The notes beneath the pieces are model-generated. The model searched no databases. It saw only the letters and a list, made by a program, of their open reading frames with translations, and was not told the DNA's origin. The position numbers were made by a program, and so were the translations under genes. This document shows, one piece after another, positions 6,075-49,756 of a stretch of 64,000 nt of DNA (positions are counted from its first letter, which is position 1; every line of letters starts with the position of its first letter). Source of the stretch: an uncultured bacterium (GTDB taxonomy: Bacteria; Planctomycetota; Phycisphaerae; SM23-33; FEN-1343); assembly GCA_965372365.1 (NCBI GenBank), contig CBDVCA010000001.1, forward strand, positions 5,810-69,809, read 5' to 3'.

Positions 6075-6400
6075 ACTGGACCTCTCGAAATGCGAGACGC
6101 TGGGCGCGCCTCTGGGCAATTATGAATTCGCCGCATGGTTGTTCCGGACAGTCGCGGCGGCTGGCACAGTCGCATCAGAGAACCGGCGACAAGCCGACAG
6201 TAATGCCTGCATTCCGGGCAGGCGCAGGCTTGTCTTTGGCGAAACTACCGGGACGAGGTGAAACTCCTGGCTTCCAGATCACATATCATTCCAAGCTCCC
6301 CGCCGAGCGGGATGAGCCTATCTAGATAGCGACAGAATTGTCGTTCGACTTGAGCTGTACTCCGGCTCTGGAGCCATTCACGATTGAGATGCGGGAACCG

Positions 6401-6475
6401 AGCATGAGCGAGAACGAACGTGGCGCGGACGTAACAGCAGCCATAGCAACGCTATGGCGATACCGCAGCCGGCTT
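6401..6475 (+). repeat. Conserved hairpin module, copy A (GAGCGAGAACGAACGTGGCG...GACGTAACAGCAGCCATAGC-aac-GCTATGGCGATACC)
   Basis: Homologous to the copies at 11941..12030 and 12433..12505. Perfect 8-bp stem 6440..6458 with loop aac. Lies in the 480-bp MCP/pgpA intergenic region. Confidence 0.6.
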
Positions 6476-6557
6476 GGACCCATCGGTCAATCGCGCACCG
6501 CTCTAATAGAGATTTATTCCAACGGCAATGGCCCTACCCCCCATCCGGCGGCCCGCA

Positions 6558-7043
6558 CTAAACGACAAATCGCACGATCATCTGAGCGGCGATGTTGGCG
6601 TAGACGCCCGCGGCTAGATCGTCGCACAGTACACCCCATCCGGCGGGGAGTTTCTCCAACTGCCGCGCCGGCGTTGGTTTGAGGATATCAAATACGCGGA
6701 ACGCCACGAACGCCACACCCGCGGCTGTCAGGGCGCCGCCAACGCCGGCGGCCGGAAGAGCGATCAACGCCACCGCCTGTCCGGCCCATTCGTCGATCGT
6801 GACCTGGCCGGGATCTTTCTTGCCGAAGTGACGCTCAGCGAACGGCCCCAGGGCCACGCAGATGACGCTGCTGACCACCACCACCAAGACCATCGCGGCG
6901 TCAACCGCATACGAACGCTCGCCGTCGATCCGGCCGATCAGCAGATACAACGCGACCACCACCGCCGAGCCCCACGTGCCCGGTGCGATCGGCAGATACC
7001 CGGTCCCCAGGCCGGTCACCGCCAGCGTCTTGAGCCTATCCAC
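6558..7043 (-). CDS. pgpA: Phosphatidylglycerophosphatase A
   Basis: GTGYLPIAPGTWGS, TIDEWAGQ, FRVFDILKP...LPAGWGVLCDDLAAG motifs. Confidence 0.85.
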   Translation of the reverse strand: MDRLKTLAVTGLGTGYLPIAPGTWGSAVVVALYLLIGRIDGERSYAVDAAMVLVVVVSSVICVALGPFAERHFGKKDPGQVTIDEWAGQAVALIALPAAGVGGALTAAGVAFVAFRVFDILKPTPARQLEKLPAGWGVLCDDLAAGVYANIAAQMIVRFVV

Positions 7044-7725: not shown

Positions 7726-9096
7726 TTATCGGCGGCGGCGTTTGCGTCGCGAGGCCGCCTTCGAAGGCGTTACGATCAGGTCGTACTCGCTGTACTCGGC
7801 CACGGTCGCTCGCACAAAGGCTCCCGCCGGAGCCGGGTCGGTCAGGTAGCACACACTGTCGACGTCGGGCGCCTGTCCGGCGTGCCTGCCGACACAATAC
7901 CCGTTGGAATCGACGCCGTCGACCATTACCTCGATCGACTTTCCGATACGGGCGGCGTTGGCGGCCAGCGCGATCTCCTGCTGGGCGAGCATCAACTCCT
8001 CCACCCGCTTGGCGGCCACCTCCGGATCGACCGCCCCGTCCATCTTCGCGGCCGCCGTGCCGGGCTCGGGGGAGAAGGCGAACACCCCCATCGCGTCGAA
8101 GCGGGCCGCCTCCACAAACGCCAGCAACCGCCGATACTCGGCGTCGGTCTCGCCGGGGAACCCCACAATGAACGTCGTCCGAATCGTCATATCCTCAACG
8201 CGGCTGCGGAGCCGCTCGATGAGCCGCTCGGTTTCGGCCTCGCTCGTCCGGCGCCGCATTCGCTTCAGCACGCCGTCGGCCACATGCTGCAGCGGCACGT
8301 CGATGTACTTGACGACCTTCTCGCACTCGGCGATCGCGTCGATGATCTCGTCGGTCACCAGCGACGGATACGCGTACATCAGGCGGATCCACCGCACGCG
8401 ATCCAGCCCGTTGAGTTCGGCCAGCAGCCCGGCCAGGCCGGCGTCGTAGCCGATATCCCCGCCATAGCTGGTCGTATCCTGACCGATCAGATTCAATTCG
8501 ACCGCCCCGTCGGCGATCAACTCGGCCGCTTCGGCCATGATGCGGTCGATCGGCTTGGAGCGGAACGGGCCGCGAATAGCGGGGATGGTGCAGAAGCTGC
8601 ACCCTTGGCCGCAGCCCTCGCTGATACGCAGATACGCCGTATGCGCCGGCGTCAATCGCAGCCGCGACGTGTCGTCGCCGACCGCCGGACTGTCGGCGCT
8701 GCGCCGATACGCATCGACCGCCGTAACCTCCGTCGTCGCCGTCACCGCCTCGACCAGATCGGCGCGATTGTTCACCCCCACCACCGCGTCGACACCCGGC
8801 AAGGCCCGGCGTAACTCGTCGCCGTCCCGCTGGGCCATGCACCCGACGACGACCACCCGACGGACCGATCCGGCTTCCTTCATCGCCAGCGCTTCGGCGA
8901 TAACTTCGGTCGATTCGTCCCGCGCCGAGGCGAGAAACCCGCAGGTGTTCACGATAATCACGTTCGCTTGGTCCGCGTCGGCGCCCACGATGCAGCCGGC
9001 CTCGGCCAATAGGCCGAGCATCTTCTCGCTGTCGACGAGGTTCTTCGGACAGCCCAGCGAAATCAGGTTGACGATTGTCGGTTCTTCATTACTCAT
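7726..9096 (-). CDS. rimO: Ribosomal protein S12 methylthiotransferase (radical SAM MTTase plus TRAM domain)
   Basis: N-terminal ISLGCPKNLVDSE, radical-SAM CxxxCxxC (EGCGQGCSFCTIP), C-terminal TRAM-like region. Confidence 0.8.
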   Translation of the reverse strand: MSNEEPTIVNLISLGCPKNLVDSEKMLGLLAEAGCIVGADADQANVIIVNTCGFLASARDESTEVIAEALAMKEAGSVRRVVVVGCMAQRDGDELRRALPGVDAVVGVNNRADLVEAVTATTEVTAVDAYRRSADSPAVGDDTSRLRLTPAHTAYLRISEGCGQGCSFCTIPAIRGPFRSKPIDRIMAEAAELIADGAVELNLIGQDTTSYGGDIGYDAGLAGLLAELNGLDRVRWIRLMYAYPSLVTDEIIDAIAECEKVVKYIDVPLQHVADGVLKRMRRRTSEAETERLIERLRSRVEDMTIRTTFIVGFPGETDAEYRRLLAFVEAARFDAMGVFAFSPEPGTAAAKMDGAVDPEVAAKRVEELMLAQQEIALAANAARIGKSIEVMVDGVDSNGYCVGRHAGQAPDVDSVCYLTDPAPAGAFVRATVAEYSEYDLIVTPSKAASRRKRRRR

Positions 9097-9111
9097 AGAC
9101 CCGTTATTCTA

Positions 9112-9229
9112 CCAACTCGGCCCCGCCAAAGGAACCGGGCCGAGCCGACCGGATTTTCGCCTCGAGTTCCCACTCGGCCCCGCCAAAGGAACCGGGCCGA
9201 GCCGACCGGATTCTCCCCTTCGAGTTCCC
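9112..9229. repeat. Two tandem copies of a 58-59 bp unit, each with an 8-bp GC stem (ctcggccc...gggccgag) and 13-nt loop cgccaaaggaacc, in the divergent rimO/dus promoter region
   Basis: Units at about 9112..9171 and 9170..9229 are about 93% identical. Hairpins at 9117..9145 and 9173..9201. The minus ORF 9104..9487 translates the repeats (SARPGSFGGAE twice) and is not a gene. Confidence 0.7.
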
Positions 9230-9260
9230 CCCCCCTCCGCCGGCTGCTATACTATCGGCA

Positions 9261-10253
9261 ATGAGTGCTCCGATGAATGTCCAACCTCTCCGGATCGGCC
9301 CGATCGAATTGACCGCCCCGGCGGTGCTGGCCCCGCTGGCCGGGTATACCGATCTGTCGTACCGGCTCGTCTGCCGACGGCTGGGCGCCGAGTATTGCGC
9401 GACCGAGGTGACGCTGGACACGTCGATCAACCAAGGCGAAAAACTCCGCCGCAAGCTTATACAGATCCCCGACGAGGACCACCTCATCGCCGGTCAGATT
9501 ATGGGCCGCGAACCGGCGTCGGTGGCCGAGGCCGCCGGGCGCGTTGTGGCCATGGGCGCCGACGTGATCGATCTGAACTTCGCCTGCCCGGTCCGCAAGG
9601 CCCTTCGGCGCCGTCGCGGCGGGCACATGATGCGAGCGCCGCAAACCGCCATCGCCACGCTCAAAGCGGTCGCCGAGGAGGTCGATGTACCGCTGACGGT
9701 GAAACTTCGACGGAGCTTCGACGACGATGATACGACCCACGACGCGTTCTGGCGAATCGCCGAGGCGGCCTTCGACCTCGGATTCGCCGCCATCTGCGTC
9801 CACGGCCGCTCCGTCCGCGCCGGCTACGGCGGCCCGGCCGATTGGGCGTTCCTCGCGAGCGTCAAACGCCGCTTCGCCGACCGGGTCGTCATCGGATCCG
9901 GCGACCTCATGACCGCCGCCGACGGCGTCCGCATGCTGGTCGAAACCGGCGTCGACGGCGTCTCCTTCGCCCGCGGCGCCCTGGGCAACCCCTGGATCTT
10001 CGGCCAGTTCCGCCAACTCCTCGCCGGTCAACCGGCCGCGGCTCCGACCGTGGTCGAGCAGGCCCGGGTGCTCCGCGAGCATTACGCCATGTGCCTGGAG
10101 TTCTTCGGCCCGCGAAACGGCCCGGCCATGATGAACCGCTTCGGCATCCGCTACGCCAAGGTCCACCCCACCCCCCGTCCGGTCCGCACCGCCTTCATCC
10201 AGTCCGACTGCGGCAAGGACATCCCGAAAATCCTCGACACGTACTACGCGTAG
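9261..10253 (+). CDS. tRNA-dihydrouridine synthase (Dus family)
   Basis: LAPLAGYTDLSYR, GQIMGREP, DVIDLNFACPVRK motifs. TATACT lies 7 nt upstream of the ATG, which may indicate a leaderless start. Confidence 0.85.
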   Translation: MSAPMNVQPLRIGPIELTAPAVLAPLAGYTDLSYRLVCRRLGAEYCATEVTLDTSINQGEKLRRKLIQIPDEDHLIAGQIMGREPASVAEAAGRVVAMGADVIDLNFACPVRKALRRRRGGHMMRAPQTAIATLKAVAEEVDVPLTVKLRRSFDDDDTTHDAFWRIAEAAFDLGFAAICVHGRSVRAGYGGPADWAFLASVKRRFADRVVIGSGDLMTAADGVRMLVETGVDGVSFARGALGNPWIFGQFRQLLAGQPAAAPTVVEQARVLREHYAMCLEFFGPRNGPAMMNRFGIRYAKVHPTPRPVRTAFIQSDCGKDIPKILDTYYA

Positions 10254-10305
10254 GACTCTGTCCCATCGACAATGTGGAGTTGGCTGGCTTCCCGTTGAGG
10301 CGCCG

Positions 10306-11610
10306 TCATGGCCGCCGCGTCGGTCGACCGATAATCAGCCAGGCGTATTTGCCGCCGATGATGGACAGCAGGTTCGCTCCGGGGGGAACCAGGCGGATCA
10401 TCATCGCCACGATAGCGGCGACGACGCCGGCGATGAAGCCGCCGATGTGAGCCCAGTGAGCGGTGCCGGATTCCAACTTGGCGGCCACGTACAGCACGTC
10501 GAATGCAATATAGGCGCCCACGACGATGATGCCCGGCAACGAGAAGATCTTCTTGAACAGTCTGAACCCTGTGATGAGCCCCATCCGTAACCATACGACC
10601 ATATGGACTTTCTGGAGCGGGAACAGGATCAGGTACAACCCGCACATCCCCATGACGGCCCCGGAGGCGCCGAGCATGGGGATCGGCACGCCGCCGGAAA
10701 CCGAGGCCATGTGAGCCCACCCTGCGATCACCCCCAGCAACGGGTAGAGGATCAGCGTGGGAACATTGCCGATGACGCTGTTCACACGCGTACCGAACAC
10801 GATCAGGAACAGCATGTTGCCAGCCAAGTGCAGCAGCCCCCCGTGCAGGAATGCGTGGGTAATGAGCTGCAACGGCTGGAACTGACCGATCTCTCCCGAC
10901 AGTTCATAGGTCAGATCATCGACGGCCGCATCAAGCTCGGAACGATCGACAGTATCTGAGGTTCCGTCTGCGTACTCGACCTCCCCGACCGCCGGGTTTT
11001 CATCGAAGAACGCCTCGTCCACACCGGCGTCGATATAGGCCGCGACAGCGTATTCCCGGGCCGACATGGCGTCATTGTCCCAGAGCATCAAGTTCATTGC
11101 GGCCTTGCCGTCGCCGCCCATGTTGGCCGCGAAGAACCCCACGCTGGCCAAGACCGTAATCGCGAAGATCAGCCACGTAGCCACCGGCCGTTTGCCCCCG
11201 CCGGCCTCGGCGGCGATCGGATGCAGCCCTGTCGGGAACAACCAACTGAGCCAGCCGACAATGGTCTCGGCCCGGGTGTAGAGGTCGTCCAGATCGGGCT
11301 CGAATGATGTCATGACAGGCCGACCGCTGCTCGCCTTCACGCCGCAACGGACGCAGATCACAGCATTGGCCGCCAAGGTCTGATCGCAACTGGGGCATAT
11401 CGACCTGCCGCCGGAGGACCGGGAGACCTTGGCGGTGGGGATCGGAGTCGCCATGCGGGGATCGATCAACTCCTCGGCGAAATCGAGTTCAGCCTCCGGC
11501 GAGGGAATGGCCAGCGCCGCGCCGCACTTGGGGCACTTACCTTTCTTGCCGGCCTTGGAGTCGTCAACTTTGAAGTTGGCGCCGCATCCATTACACGCGA
11601 ATCGGATCAT
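10306..11610 (-). CDS. Rhomboid-family intramembrane serine protease with N-terminal zinc-ribbon domain
   Basis: Start MIRFACNGCGANFKVDDSKAGKKGKCPKCGA (MJ0042-type ribbon) with AAAGGG upstream. A second CxxC pair (CPSCDQ...CVRCG). Rhomboid GASGAVMG and AHIGGFIAG motifs. Confidence 0.8.
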   Translation of the reverse strand: MIRFACNGCGANFKVDDSKAGKKGKCPKCGAALAIPSPEAELDFAEELIDPRMATPIPTAKVSRSSGGRSICPSCDQTLAANAVICVRCGVKASSGRPVMTSFEPDLDDLYTRAETIVGWLSWLFPTGLHPIAAEAGGGKRPVATWLIFAITVLASVGFFAANMGGDGKAAMNLMLWDNDAMSAREYAVAAYIDAGVDEAFFDENPAVGEVEYADGTSDTVDRSELDAAVDDLTYELSGEIGQFQPLQLITHAFLHGGLLHLAGNMLFLIVFGTRVNSVIGNVPTLILYPLLGVIAGWAHMASVSGGVPIPMLGASGAVMGMCGLYLILFPLQKVHMVVWLRMGLITGFRLFKKIFSLPGIIVVGAYIAFDVLYVAAKLESGTAHWAHIGGFIAGVVAAIVAMMIRLVPPGANLLSIIGGKYAWLIIGRPTRRP

Positions 11611-11940
11611 CACCAGCCCTTTCGTGGTAGTTATATGCACAGGCCGCGATATGTCTGAGGCCCGGACCGGCGTAGGAGGCGAGCCCCCAAGCGATGCCCC
11701 AGTCAGAATGGAATCGGTCATCTGCCCGCGATGAAGACAATCTCACCCTCTCCGCAAGACGCCTGCCATGCATCGCCACACACCAGTGTACTCACCTCGC
11801 CCCCGCCGTCAACACCGCCGGGGGGACGGGCCTGCGCCGTCTCGATCCACGGACCGCTGTCGCGGCCCTGGTATTCTGTCCCTGGCATGAAGTCCAGCAT
11901 GAGATTATCTCCGCTTGGGCGCCGCGGGTTGCCCGAGCCA

Positions 11941-12030
11941 AGCGTGAGCGAGAACGAGCGTGGCGAGAACGAGCGTGGCGATGACGTTGAAGCAGCCATG
12001 GCAGTTCTGTGGCGATCGAAACGGACAATG
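11941..12030 (+). repeat. Conserved hairpin module, copy B (internal duplication of gagaacgagcgtggc; stem 11995..12013 kept by two G-U wobbles)
   Basis: gtgagcgagaacgagcgtggcg[agaacgagcgtggcg]atgacgttgaagcagccatggc-agtt-ctgtggcgatcgaaacggac. Lies in the roughly 500-bp rhomboid/nth intergenic region; no convincing CDS. Confidence 0.6.
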
Positions 12031-12401
12031 CCAGAAGGACTACCAGGCGCGCGATCCTCGCCATCGCATTCTTCATTGGCTCGGGGCCGCCGCGGTCGCG
12101 TCGGCGATGGAGTCACGACCGGTCCATCACCCCTCGCCCCCACGGGCACAGTTCCAACAGCCGACAATCGTCGCAACGCGGGCTCCTCGCCCGGCACACG
12201 GCTCGGCCGTGGGCGATCAGCAACAGGTGCATCGCGTACCGGTCCCGGGGGCGAATCAACGGGGTCAGCAAGTCGTGGGCCGCCTCGGCCGACGTTCCGG
12301 CAGGAAGAACCTCCAGGCGAATGGCGATGCGGAGAATGTGGGTGTCGACCGGAAAGACCGGCATACCGAAGCTGAACATCAACACGCAATAGGCGGTCTT
12401 A

Positions 12402-12559
12402 GAGCACTTTGCATAATAGATGTCGTGTTCAGGCGTAGGTGAGGACGAGGCTGGCAAGGACGTTGAAGCAGCCATAGCCTTTGCTATGGCGATGGAAACG
12501 GACGCCGCCAACCGATGCCGCAACCAGCATGAAGGCGACAGGTATTATGCAAAGTGCTC
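12402..12559. mobile_element. Element X: 158-bp TA-flanked element with perfect 17-bp TIRs (gagcactttgcataata / tattatgcaaagtgctc), carrying hairpin-module copy C
   Basis: TA at 12400-12401 and 12560-12561. Inserted in nth immediately next to MITE-a copy 2. Confidence 0.65.
12433..12505 (+). repeat. Conserved hairpin module, copy C (inside element X): gtaggtgaggacgaggctggcaaggacgttgaagcagccatagc-cttt-gctatggcgatggaaacggac
   Basis: Stem 12471..12490, perfect 8 bp with a 4-nt loop. A one-base loop-length difference from copy B shifts the reading frame while the nucleotide sequence stays conserved. Confidence 0.6.
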
Positions 12560-12561
12560 TA

Positions 12562-12724
12562 GTACCCTGTCCCAGCAATACTGTGGTGTTCTGACTTGCG
12601 GCGATGATGCGTCTGCTGCGTCAGAAAAGCTCGGCATATCAACCAATATGCCGTCACTTTTCTTCCTTACATCCACATCACCGGCGCGGCGTCATAACAC
12701 CACATTATCCCTGGGACAGAGTAC
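12562..12724 (-). mobile_element. MITE-a copy 2 (163 bp, inverted relative to copy 1), flanked by TA (12560-12561 and 12725-12726); inserted in nth
   Basis: Termini gtaccctgtcccag...ctgggacagagtac. Core (reverse complement) gatgtaaggaagaaaagtgacggcatattggttgatatgccgagcttttctgacgcagcag matches the copy 1 core. The TIR arms differ from copy 1 but stay mutually complementary. Confidence 0.75.
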
Positions 12725-13215
12725 TAGGGCCGACGCCCTTGAAACGGCATAGATACTCGAACGCCGCGGCGGGGGTCGCGTCGCCCAGAAAAGCCAAATC
12801 GATCGCTCCCCGCTCGGCGCGGATGTCGCGGAGGATCTTTCTGATTCGAGGCGCCTTCTGGCGTGACAAGCCGCTGACGCGAATGCATCGCTCGATGCGC
12901 CCGACCGGGACGTCGGCCGCGGCGTCCCAGGTGGACTCGGCGCCCGAGAACGATTCGACAAGCCGTCGGTATCCCGCTCGACTGTTCGCGCGGCTGGTCG
13001 ACTGCGACAAGATCGTCCCGATCAACACGTCGACCGGCGGACCGTGCGATTCCCACGAACGCCGACCGTACTGGTCGACCAAGCGGCAAAGGACATCGGC
13101 CAGAAGGCGACGGGATGTGAGGGCCGTGGGCATGGTGACGGTTCCGAGAATGCTTGCTCCGGCGAAGGGCGATCCAGGTGCCGACCGCCATCAAGCGCCG
13201 AAGACCGCTGCGCGT

Positions 13216-14739
13216 CTACTCAGATCGGACCTTTTCGGCGGCCATCCGGACGGCGCGGCGGCGGAGCCATTGCATGCGGAAGCTCAGAATACTGACGTAG
13301 TAGAAACCGACGGTGAAGATCACCAGGAATGGCGCGCCCATCAGCGACCGAGCGTCCAGCAAGGAGAAGACCGTGCAGACCGTCAGGTAGATCGCGAACA
13401 ACAGTTCCAGCCAGGGGACGATATCGAACTTCCTCGCCGTCGATGAAGGCTCGTCGGTCGCGTAGATATCGACGCCTTCGCCGACCTTGGGCGTGCGGAC
13501 GAACTCGCTCTGGCGGCCGAACAGGGCCTCCAGCACGGCCTTGGTGTTGGAGACGCACATCCCCACTCCCAGCGCCATCAGGAACGGTAGATACTTCAAC
13601 GTGGTTCGCCACGAACCGAACAGTTCCTGTTGACTGCACACGTAAAACGTGCTCGCCGACAGCGTGGCCAGCGAGAAAATGCTGATATCGAACATCATCC
13701 GCCACGGCGTTCCGTCGGCCAGCGGGACCGACTGAATGAACATCGCCGGAAACAGCATCATCACCAGGATCGCCATGTACAGGTGCACGGTAAAACTGGT
13801 CAGGTGGAACGTCGCCTCGATCTTGGCCTTCAACGGAGCGTTCGACATCCAAATTCGCGGCAACAGTTTCAACGCCGTCTGCGTGCCGCCCTTGGTCCAG
13901 CGATGCTGCTGGGCCTTGAACGCGTTGATGTCCGGGGGCAGTTCGGCCGGGGCGCCTAACTCCGGAAGAAAGATGAACGTCCAGCCGCGAAGTTGGGCGC
14001 GGTAGCTGAGATCCATGTCCTCGGTGAGCGTGTCGTGCTGCCAGCCGCCGGCGTCGGCGATGGCCTCGCGGCGCCAGGTTCCGGCGGTGCCGTTGAAACT
14101 CATGAACCGCCCGCTGCGGTTGCGGGCGACGTGCTCGATGACGAAATGGCCGTCGAGGAAGATCGCCTGCCCTCGCGTCAGGAGGCTGTCCTTGCGATTG
14201 AGGTGCTCCCACCGCGTCTGAACGACGCAGACCTTCGGATCGGTGAAATAATGAATGCTCCGCCGAAGGATGCTGGGCTCGGGAATGAAGTCGGCGTCGA
14301 AGATCGTTACGAACTCGCCGGTGGCGCTGGTGAGCCCGTTGGCCAGAGCGCCAGCCTTGAACCCGGTGCGATTGCCGCGGTGGATATACTGAATATCGAC
14401 GCCCGCGGCCCGCGCCTTCTCGACGGCCGCCGTTGCGATGACGACGGTTTCGTCGGTGCTGTCGTCGAGGACCTGTATCTGCATCTTCTGACGAGGATAA
14501 TCGATCTTGCAGGCCTCTTCGATGATCCTGCGTGCGACGTACTTCTCGTTGTACATCGGCAACTGCACCGTCACCAGCGGCAGTTCATCGAAATTGTTGC
14601 GAGGCACGCTGGGCCGATTGCGATGGCGGTAGTACAGGTAGACCAGCGACCAGCGGTGGAAGCCGAAGATCGAGACTGCAACCAGGACGACGGTATACAG
14701 TGTCATGAACAGCGCGTGTAGTAGTGCCGAAAAAGTCAT
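13216..14739 (-). CDS. Family 2 glycosyltransferase, processive type (cellulose synthase/PgaC/NodC-like), membrane-embedded
   Basis: DDSTDET, FDADF (DxD), QQHRW (QxxRW) motifs, with N- and C-terminal TM helices. Confidence 0.8.
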   Translation of the reverse strand: MTFSALLHALFMTLYTVVLVAVSIFGFHRWSLVYLYYRHRNRPSVPRNNFDELPLVTVQLPMYNEKYVARRIIEEACKIDYPRQKMQIQVLDDSTDETVVIATAAVEKARAAGVDIQYIHRGNRTGFKAGALANGLTSATGEFVTIFDADFIPEPSILRRSIHYFTDPKVCVVQTRWEHLNRKDSLLTRGQAIFLDGHFVIEHVARNRSGRFMSFNGTAGTWRREAIADAGGWQHDTLTEDMDLSYRAQLRGWTFIFLPELGAPAELPPDINAFKAQQHRWTKGGTQTALKLLPRIWMSNAPLKAKIEATFHLTSFTVHLYMAILVMMLFPAMFIQSVPLADGTPWRMMFDISIFSLATLSASTFYVCSQQELFGSWRTTLKYLPFLMALGVGMCVSNTKAVLEALFGRQSEFVRTPKVGEGVDIYATDEPSSTARKFDIVPWLELLFAIYLTVCTVFSLLDARSLMGAPFLVIFTVGFYYVSILSFRMQWLRRRAVRMAAEKVRSE

Positions 14740-49283: not shown

Positions 49284-49328
49284 GTCCAAACGACCTTCGT
49301 CCAAACGACCTTCGTCCAAACGACCTTA
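49284..49328. repeat. Three tandem copies of a 15-bp unit gtccaaacgaccttc in the tRNA-Thr(GGU)/tuf spacer
   Basis: Seen directly in the sequence. Confidence 0.8.
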
Positions 49329-49640: not shown

Positions 49641-49756
49641 CCGCCGACAAACGACTGAACGCCGCCGAAAAACAGCTGAACGCTACCGACAAACGACTGC
49701 ACGCTACCGACAAACGACTGCACGCTACCGGCAAACGACTGCACGCTACCGAAAGG
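49641..49756. repeat. About 5.5 tandem copies of a 21-bp unit (c[tc][ag]ccg[ag]caaacgactg[ac]acg) in the tRNA-Gly/tRNA-Thr(GGU) spacer
   Basis: Seen in sequence. Shares the core caaacgac with the 15-bp repeat at 49284..49328. Confidence 0.8.

Follow-up and report, generated by a model that had tools for sequence, protein, structure and literature searches.

What is the tandem repeat that lies between the divergently transcribed genes rimO and dus of an uncultured planctomycete: a regulatory site, a structured RNA, a dispersed element, or a doubled piece of promoter DNA? The question arises within a 64,000-nt (64-kb) stretch of DNA, analyzed as a whole and referred to here as the window, in which rimO starts at position 9096 on the minus strand, dus starts at 9261 on the plus strand and 164 nt separate the two genes. 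The rimO gene (7726–9096) encodes ribosomal protein S12 methylthiotransferase, with a TIGR01125 score of 456.5 bits against an equivalog cut-off of 357, and is the first gene of a rimO-pgsA-pgpA string, a gene order that also occurs in the related loci L001 and L003–L005. The dus gene (9261–10253) encodes a member of the tRNA dihydrouridine synthase family; its product scores 238 bits with the DusB model, which is below the DusB equivalog cut-off, and Pfam Dus is found on its homologues. The two genes had previously been described as tRNA/rRNA-modification genes, a label that fits dus only, as the substrate of RimO is ribosomal protein S12 and not rRNA or tRNA. The start of dus is probably at 9261 rather than at 9273, where gene callers placed it, because a TATACT hexamer sits at a conserved distance from the former start codon. 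The 326-aa form of Dus is identical to the protein P0121, and exact-protein look-ups with the window's own Dus and RimO gave no match.

Two observations concern the surroundings of the gene pair. A segment of about 2.95 kb on the 3′ side of dus (10266–13215) is absent from the sister-strain contig L001, in which dus is followed directly by a GT2 glycosyltransferase gene (13216–14739 in the window). It contains a gene for a rhomboid-domain protein with a zinc ribbon (10306–11721), a pair of ORFs that gave no Pfam hit, and an ORF that appears to be a truncated endonuclease III-like gene. The gap between rimO and dus is not a short spacer but about 1 kb long in two metagenome relatives (L006 1254–2285; L007 1412–2486), which means that they carry an insertion between the two genes.

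Tandem Repeats Finder reports the array at 9115–9229 with a period of 57, 2.0 copies, 94% matches and a score of 209, the top score in the 64-kb window. The units stand head-to-tail with a direct-repeat spacing of 57 and are assigned to neither strand: unit 1 (9115–9171) has 57 nt and unit 2 (9172–9229) has 58 nt. Each contains a 29-nt core, CTCGGCCCCGCCAAAGGAACCGGGCCGAG, which matches exactly at 9116–9144 and 9173–9201 and consists of an 8-bp perfect inverted repeat, CTCGGCCC/GGGCCGAG, with 13 nt between the arms. Both palindromes, again without strand, are thus the same in sequence, and the earlier description of two hairpin units with an 8-bp GC stem and a 13-nt loop between rimO (9096) and dus (9261) was confirmed. 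The two units share, without a mismatch, a 43-nt stretch (ACTCGG...CCGGATT) and CGAGTTCCC. They differ at about five positions, including one indel, all of which fall in a patch of 7–8 nt that reads TTCGCCT in unit 1 (9156–9162) and CTCCCCTT in unit 2 (9213–9220).

Orthologous loci were gathered through exact-protein look-ups and one metagenome scan, and the closest Dus homologues came from Planctomycetota and Phycisphaerae metagenome-assembled genomes. A homologue that is 98% identical to the window's Dus (P0001) is encoded on the contigs L001 (from ENA) and L002 (GCA_030634665.1), both of which share the arrangement of rimO-pgsA-pgpA and dus with the window. With a nucleotide identity of 96.5–97.8% and a divergence of 4–5% at four-fold sites, these contigs belong to the same species as the window. 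As L001 and L002 are 99.94% identical and hence not independent, the copy-number comparison is one between two strains. The spacer between rimO and dus measures 107 nt in L001/L002 and 164 nt in the window, and the shorter allele contains exactly one unit; the comparison of the spacer across strains that the earlier note had proposed therefore revealed a difference in copy number. The single unit reads CTA-CCCACTCGG...CGAGTT-CCCCCCCCC, where one CCC opens the segment that is duplicated in the window and another CCC follows it. Such microhomology at both ends is a signature of slippage or of microhomology-mediated tandem duplication. Because the sister strain has a single unit flanked by CCC, the repeat is a copy-number polymorphism of the slippage type (VNTR-type) within one species. 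An exact unit-length duplication by recent slippage had been suggested from the window alone; a recent, slippage-type duplication agrees with the sister allele, but exactness does not hold, as the units differ in length (57 and 58 nt) and in sequence.

The sister strain also provides a third version of the unit. Unit 2 is 96.6% identical to the single unit of L001, and the 43-nt core and CGAGTTCCC are the same in unit 1, unit 2 and L001, while the patch of 7–8 nt between them has three alleles: TTTTCGCC-T in unit 1, TTCTCCCCTT in unit 2 and TTTTGCCCTT in L001. The fact that the window's copies differ, including an indel, and that L001 carries a third patch allele argues against an assembler artefact on either side of the one-versus-two comparison. 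The stretches of spacer that flank the unit, of 15 nt and 31 nt, are the same in the window and L001. At 9–10%, the difference between units 1 and 2 exceeds the neutral divergence of the two strains (4–5%). Simple neutral decay fits this pattern of identity less well than gene conversion, a mutational hot spot or constraint acting on both copies; an older duplication that was later lost in L001 would also fit the divergence of the units.

In promoters of leaderless mRNAs, such as those of Actinobacteria and Deinococcus, about 7 nt separate the −10 box from the start codon. On the dus side of the repeat, the plus-strand hexamer TATACT (9248–9253), preceded by TGC, was confirmed at 7 nt before the ATG at 9261. 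An exact TATACT precedes the dus start codon in 32 loci, and in 25 of these it is 6–7 nt from the ATG or GTG. Of 76 dereplicated regions upstream of dus, 31 contain it, compared with 4 of 380 control chunks of the same length, and it is by far the strongest word in a k-mer enrichment of the same 76 regions. The conservation spans a wide clade of Planctomycetota (L006–L092), with Dus identity down to about 48%. Since TATACT recurs at a fixed 6–7 nt before the start across many related lineages, the dus mRNA is probably leaderless, as had been proposed from the window. Planctomycetes were among the phyla with few Shine-Dalgarno genes and with signals compatible with leaderless mRNA in a comparative study (PMC5397173).

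The start of dus is mis-set by gene callers in several relatives, 12 nt too late in L001/L002 and 36–190 nt too early in L087, L088 and L091. Three other loci (L003 2931–3000, L004 2933–3000 and L086 2431–2500) have no TATACT before dus and instead carry GGAAC-N16-18-CGTA just upstream of the ATG.

The position of a dus −35 box was read from the sequence. The GAGTTCC at the far end of the unit places a plus-strand hexamer, TTCCCC (9225–9230), 17 nt upstream of TATACT, and this presumed −35 hexamer spans the end of unit 2. Among the 31 dus promoters that bear TATACT, a preference for TT..C at the −35 distance is weak. Unit 1 holds an orphan copy of the hexamer, TTCCCA (9167–9172). The 17-nt spacer between the putative −35 hexamer and the −10 box includes a C9 homopolymer (9227–9235), whose first three C are the right-hand microhomology of the duplication. 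Homopolymer tracts of this kind cause phase variation in other bacteria; the tract at 9227–9235 has equal length in L001.

The other end of the spacer has a corresponding arrangement for rimO. A −10-like box, TAGAAT, lies on the minus strand (9106–9111), 9 nt before the rimO ATG. The pattern TAGNAT-N6-TCT-ATG precedes rimO in the window, L001, L003, L004, L086, L088 and L090, representing six lineages, and among more distant lineages, several show TATGAT or TATCAT at 6 nt from the rimO ATG. The box is preceded by TGG in the window strain; a single C/A difference from L001 at 9114 gives TGG-TAGAAT in the window and GGG-TAGAAT in L001, which creates an extended −10 (TGn) motif for rimO in the window strain. 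Both −10 boxes in the window are thus preceded by TGn (TGC-TATACT and TGG-TAGAAT).

At the position expected of a rimO −35 box, with a 17-nt spacer, the minus strand reads TTCCTT (9129–9134), which is inside the loop of hairpin 1. The plus-strand GGAACCG of the hairpin loop is the opposite strand of this position. The sequence GCCRAMGGAACCG is kept in L003, L004 and L086 at the same distance from rimO, and its flank can be aligned as well. Over the 41 nt adjoining rimO, the window and L003, whose Dus proteins are 72% identical, align without gaps at 76% identity, with 5 of 6 positions shared in the −10 box, 9 of 10 in the −35 region and 10 of 17 between them, which looks like the way a core promoter is conserved. 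In six lineages, including L088 and L090 with their otherwise unrelated spacers, the distance from CGG(T/A)T to the rimO −10 box downstream of it is exactly 26 nt, and the hexamers at the −35 position with 17-nt spacing are TTCCTT, TTCCGT or TTGGTT. Judged by this conservation, the most fitting reading of the 13-nt loop is as the opposite strand of the rimO −35 region, and the rimO mRNA is probably leaderless or nearly so.

A sigma-70 scan of 8800–9600 found no promoter because the −35 hexamers match TTGACA at only two to three of six positions, and the promoter assignment therefore rests on comparative conservation and not on consensus strength. The two putative promoters resemble those of leaderless mRNAs in their TATACT-N7-ATG (dus) and TAGAAT-N9-ATG (rimO) layouts, in the lack of a Shine-Dalgarno sequence and in the fixed distance kept in relatives, and differ in that they are known here from comparative sequence alone, in uncultured Planctomycetota.

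With these assignments, the repeat is fairly likely to be a strain-specific tandem duplication in which the 57–58 bp at the centre of a compact bidirectional promoter region were doubled. In the layout with one copy and a 107-bp spacer, the rimO ATG would be followed after 9 nt by the TAGAAT −10 box and a 17-nt spacer that contains the left palindrome arm; the middle would comprise the rimO −35 position (TTCCTT; plus-strand GGAACC), the right palindrome arm and about 25 bp; and the dus end would consist of GAGTTCC at the dus −35 position, the C-rich 17-nt spacer, TATACT, 7 nt and the dus ATG. Replication slippage between the two CCC triplets would have doubled the segment with both −35 regions. 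In the window, the order from rimO is now its ATG, −10 box, left arm, −35 position, right arm, variable patch, the orphan GAGTTCC, hairpin 2, the second patch, the dus −35 position, C9, TATACT and the dus ATG. The duplication leaves the upstream sequence of each gene unchanged for about 70–90 bp. Each gene would thereby retain an intact −35/−10 pair, and the extra −35-like boxes, among them the copy of the rimO −35 region with GGAACC embedded in hairpin 2 (9188–9193), would be left without a −10 partner. Read from the sequence, no −10-like hexamer stands at the right distance from these orphan boxes.

If both rimO and dus are leaderless or nearly so, the repeat would be untranscribed upstream DNA for both genes, and the distance between the two start sites would have grown from about 107 to 164 bp. 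The consequence is likely small, amounting at most to less crowding of two polymerases or an altered distance to an upstream site. Spacers in relatives vary in length, at 36–39 nt in L055 and L023 and about 70 nt in L003–L005 and L086, and since relatives with such short spacers exist, the unit is not required in the rimO/dus control region. Under the duplicated-promoter reading the palindromic arms have no role; the dyads around GGAACC in relatives could mean that a protein is bound there.

Repeat-driven changes within promoters are known from Haemophilus influenzae, where TA repeats lie in the overlapping divergent promoters of hifA and hifB, and from the poly-C tracts of Bordetella fim and Neisseria promoters. 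The rimO/dus repeat is similar in being a slipped-strand copy change inside a (bidirectional) promoter, and the C9 in the dus spacer resembles the poly-C tracts. It differs in that the 57-bp unit lies outside the −35/−10 spacers and leaves core-promoter spacing unchanged, in the lack of an evident on/off logic, and in the same length of C9 in both strains.

The arms would gain a meaning if a dimeric regulator used the palindrome CTCGGCCC-N13-GGGCCGAG as its operator and the duplication gave each promoter a site of its own, a possibility we regard as unlikely but as the main rival of the promoter reading. The arm centres are 21 bp apart, corresponding to two helical turns; the site would overlap the rimO −35 region, and about 74 bp would separate it from the dus start downstream. 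The dyad symmetry is perfect over 8 bp, L003, L004 and L086 retain a GC-rich dyad that surrounds the GGAACC core, and the 43-nt core is identical in all three copies beside a variable patch. However, the arm sequences differ between lineages and the centre is conserved, which is the reverse of the usual operator pattern. In addition, no further site occurs in the 64 kb, no regulator gene is adjacent, and L088, L090 and more distant relatives are without the dyad.

A more specific version has the GC-rich dyad around GGAACC as a lineage-specific operator that couples the rimO-pgsA-pgpA operon with dus through a putative regulator in a Phycisphaerae-like clade of planctomycetes, with both copies kept by selection. 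We consider this rather improbable. If true, it would tie S12 modification and phosphatidylglycerol synthesis to tRNA dihydrouridine synthase, and it would account for a 43-nt core without differences among three copies beside a patch with three alleles.

Alternatively, the hairpins could act as RNA structures, either in a separate small RNA or in a long 5′ leader of rimO whose promoter would lie close to the dus start or within it. The rimO-sense strand does fold somewhat better through G-U pairs (−27.5 versus −20.6 kcal/mol for one unit), and a −10-like TAGTAT exists on the minus strand at 9249–9254 as the mirror of TATACTA. Compared with shuffled sequences, however, folding z-scores range only from 0 to −1.7, with values of 0.0 when the whole spacer is folded, whichever strand is used, and of −1.0 to −1.3 when a single unit is. 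Conserved −10 boxes directly precede both start codons, and the spacers of 36–70 nt in relatives leave no room for such a leader. Rfam had no match at gathering thresholds, and raising the E-value limit to 10 gave only spurious miRNA and snoRNA matches far below threshold. The window-type and L086-type stems occupy different alignment columns, and the covariation scores observed for them were reached by 305 and 52 of 500 shuffles, respectively, in a comparison of five sequences from about three lineages that has little power. Because the repeat lies upstream of both likely transcription starts, has no Rfam match and shows no excess stability, we regard a structured RNA element as very unlikely. 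The structured 5′ element shared by both mRNAs that had been suggested earlier is also unlikely, given the lack of significant covariation and the conserved −10 boxes, which stand 7 nt before the start codon in dus and 9 nt before it in rimO.

We also rate as highly improbable the reading in which one copy of a dispersed element of the REP, MITE or MIRU type landed between rimO and dus and was then doubled. GC-rich palindromes in intergenic DNA are suggestive of such elements, other lineages have hairpin tandem repeats of their own in the same spacer (65 nt × 2.7 in L088, and also L087 and L090), and the window holds another dispersed hairpin repeat. However, searches for a second locus found none in the window, the related loci, GTDB representatives or viral contigs. 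In the 64-kb window, no further copy was found with up to three mismatches, by blastn-short, with a stem-with-gap pattern or among repeat families, and none of 100 shuffled windows contained two core matches. Elsewhere in the 92 related loci there was likewise no further copy, with a match in L029 falling inside a coding ORF. Among 185,579 representative genomes (GTDB, one per species, with the window's species apparently not included), the only match was one chance acidobacterial 21-mer that did not extend, and viral contigs contained no copy of the unit. A common genome-wide REP element, named earlier as the finding that would speak against a local role, was therefore not what these searches revealed. 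The core is also conserved orthologously in place where Dus is 72% identical, which indicates an old local sequence and no insertion, and the copies are direct rather than inverted as in BIMEs.

Comparison with known repeat families leads in the same direction. Like the REP/BIME sequences of proteobacteria, the core is an imperfect, GC-rich palindrome that measures about 30 nt and lies in non-coding DNA; unlike them, it has no copies elsewhere in the sequences searched, does not alternate in orientation, lies between divergent starts rather than after genes, and is conserved in place. The MIRU-VNTR loci of Mycobacterium tuberculosis are intergenic repeats of tens of bp, with MIRUs forming a dispersed family at dozens of loci. 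The rimO/dus repeat shares with them the intergenic head-to-tail arrangement of a unit of about 50–60 bp, a strain-variable copy number and a probable origin by slippage. In contrast to them, its unit was found at one locus only, in one versus two copies, and holds promoter parts of the flanking genes.

Other repeats were recorded in the window and in related loci. A genuine dispersed or mobile-associated element may be represented by a repeat of about 70–80 nt with three same-orientation copies in the window (about 6390–6470, 11945–12025 and 12420–12500), which are 80–83% alike over a 41-nt core. Each copy ends in a small hairpin, GCCATAGC-N3/4-GCTATGGC, is unrelated to the rimO/dus unit, and is located in a segment that does not align with the sister strain (6113–6591 or 10266–13215). 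Short tandem arrays, perfect or near-perfect, are found at 49284–49327 (15 nt × 2.9) and 49644–49752 (21 nt × 5.2), in the spacers of a tRNA-Thr/Gly/Tyr/Thr cluster that adjoins a tuf-like gene. Upstream of dus, unrelated tandem repeats of their own occur in L088, L087, L090, L029 and L060; the Dus proteins of L087, L088 and L090 are 68–71% identical to that of the window. The array in L088 (2265–2437; 65 nt × 2.7) and that in L087 (1–114; at least two copies of the L088 unit) have the hairpin CCACCGGG-CTTGC-CCCGGTGG. In L090 (1290–1309 and 1394–1459), a 32-nt unit rich in TTTCGGATTTCG is repeated 2.1 times, with inverted copies on the rimO side. Arrays with a period of at least 15 within 350 nt upstream of dus were found in 6 of about 85 loci. 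The idea of a hot spot for tandem repeats upstream of dus was rejected, as a density about twice that found elsewhere is expected of intergenic DNA. A CGGATTT motif that seemed to be shared by the repeats of several lineages was dropped, since no GGATTT-type word ranked in the top 14 at any length in the k-mer enrichment of the 76 dus upstream regions.

Finally, the plus-strand GGAAC could be the −35 box of an ECF-sigma-type promoter directed towards dus, as the AAC/CGT pattern is typical of ECF promoters and CGTA follows 16–18 nt after GGAAC, just before the dus ATG, in L003, L004 and L086, a loose resemblance, but this reading is extremely improbable given that the window and L001 have ATTTTC or ATTCTC without CGT 17 nt after GGAAC, that dus in both has the clade-wide TATACT 56 nt further on, and that CGT is three bases only. 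By inspection, spacing and bases of the core do not fit sigma-54 and LexA-box readings, and a CRISPR-like array was discarded with just two copies present and ‘spacers’ of 14–15 nt that are largely alike (TCGAGTTCCC is common to both).

In itself the repeat matters little: it adds one more case, from an uncultured planctomycete, to the short tandem duplications by which strains differ. The alleles do form a natural pair of one-copy and two-copy bidirectional promoters, which could be used to test how output depends on the distance between divergent promoters. For the wider clade of planctomycetes, the unusually invariant TATACT suggests that dus, and probably rimO, are expressed from leaderless mRNAs, which helps the annotation of their start codons.
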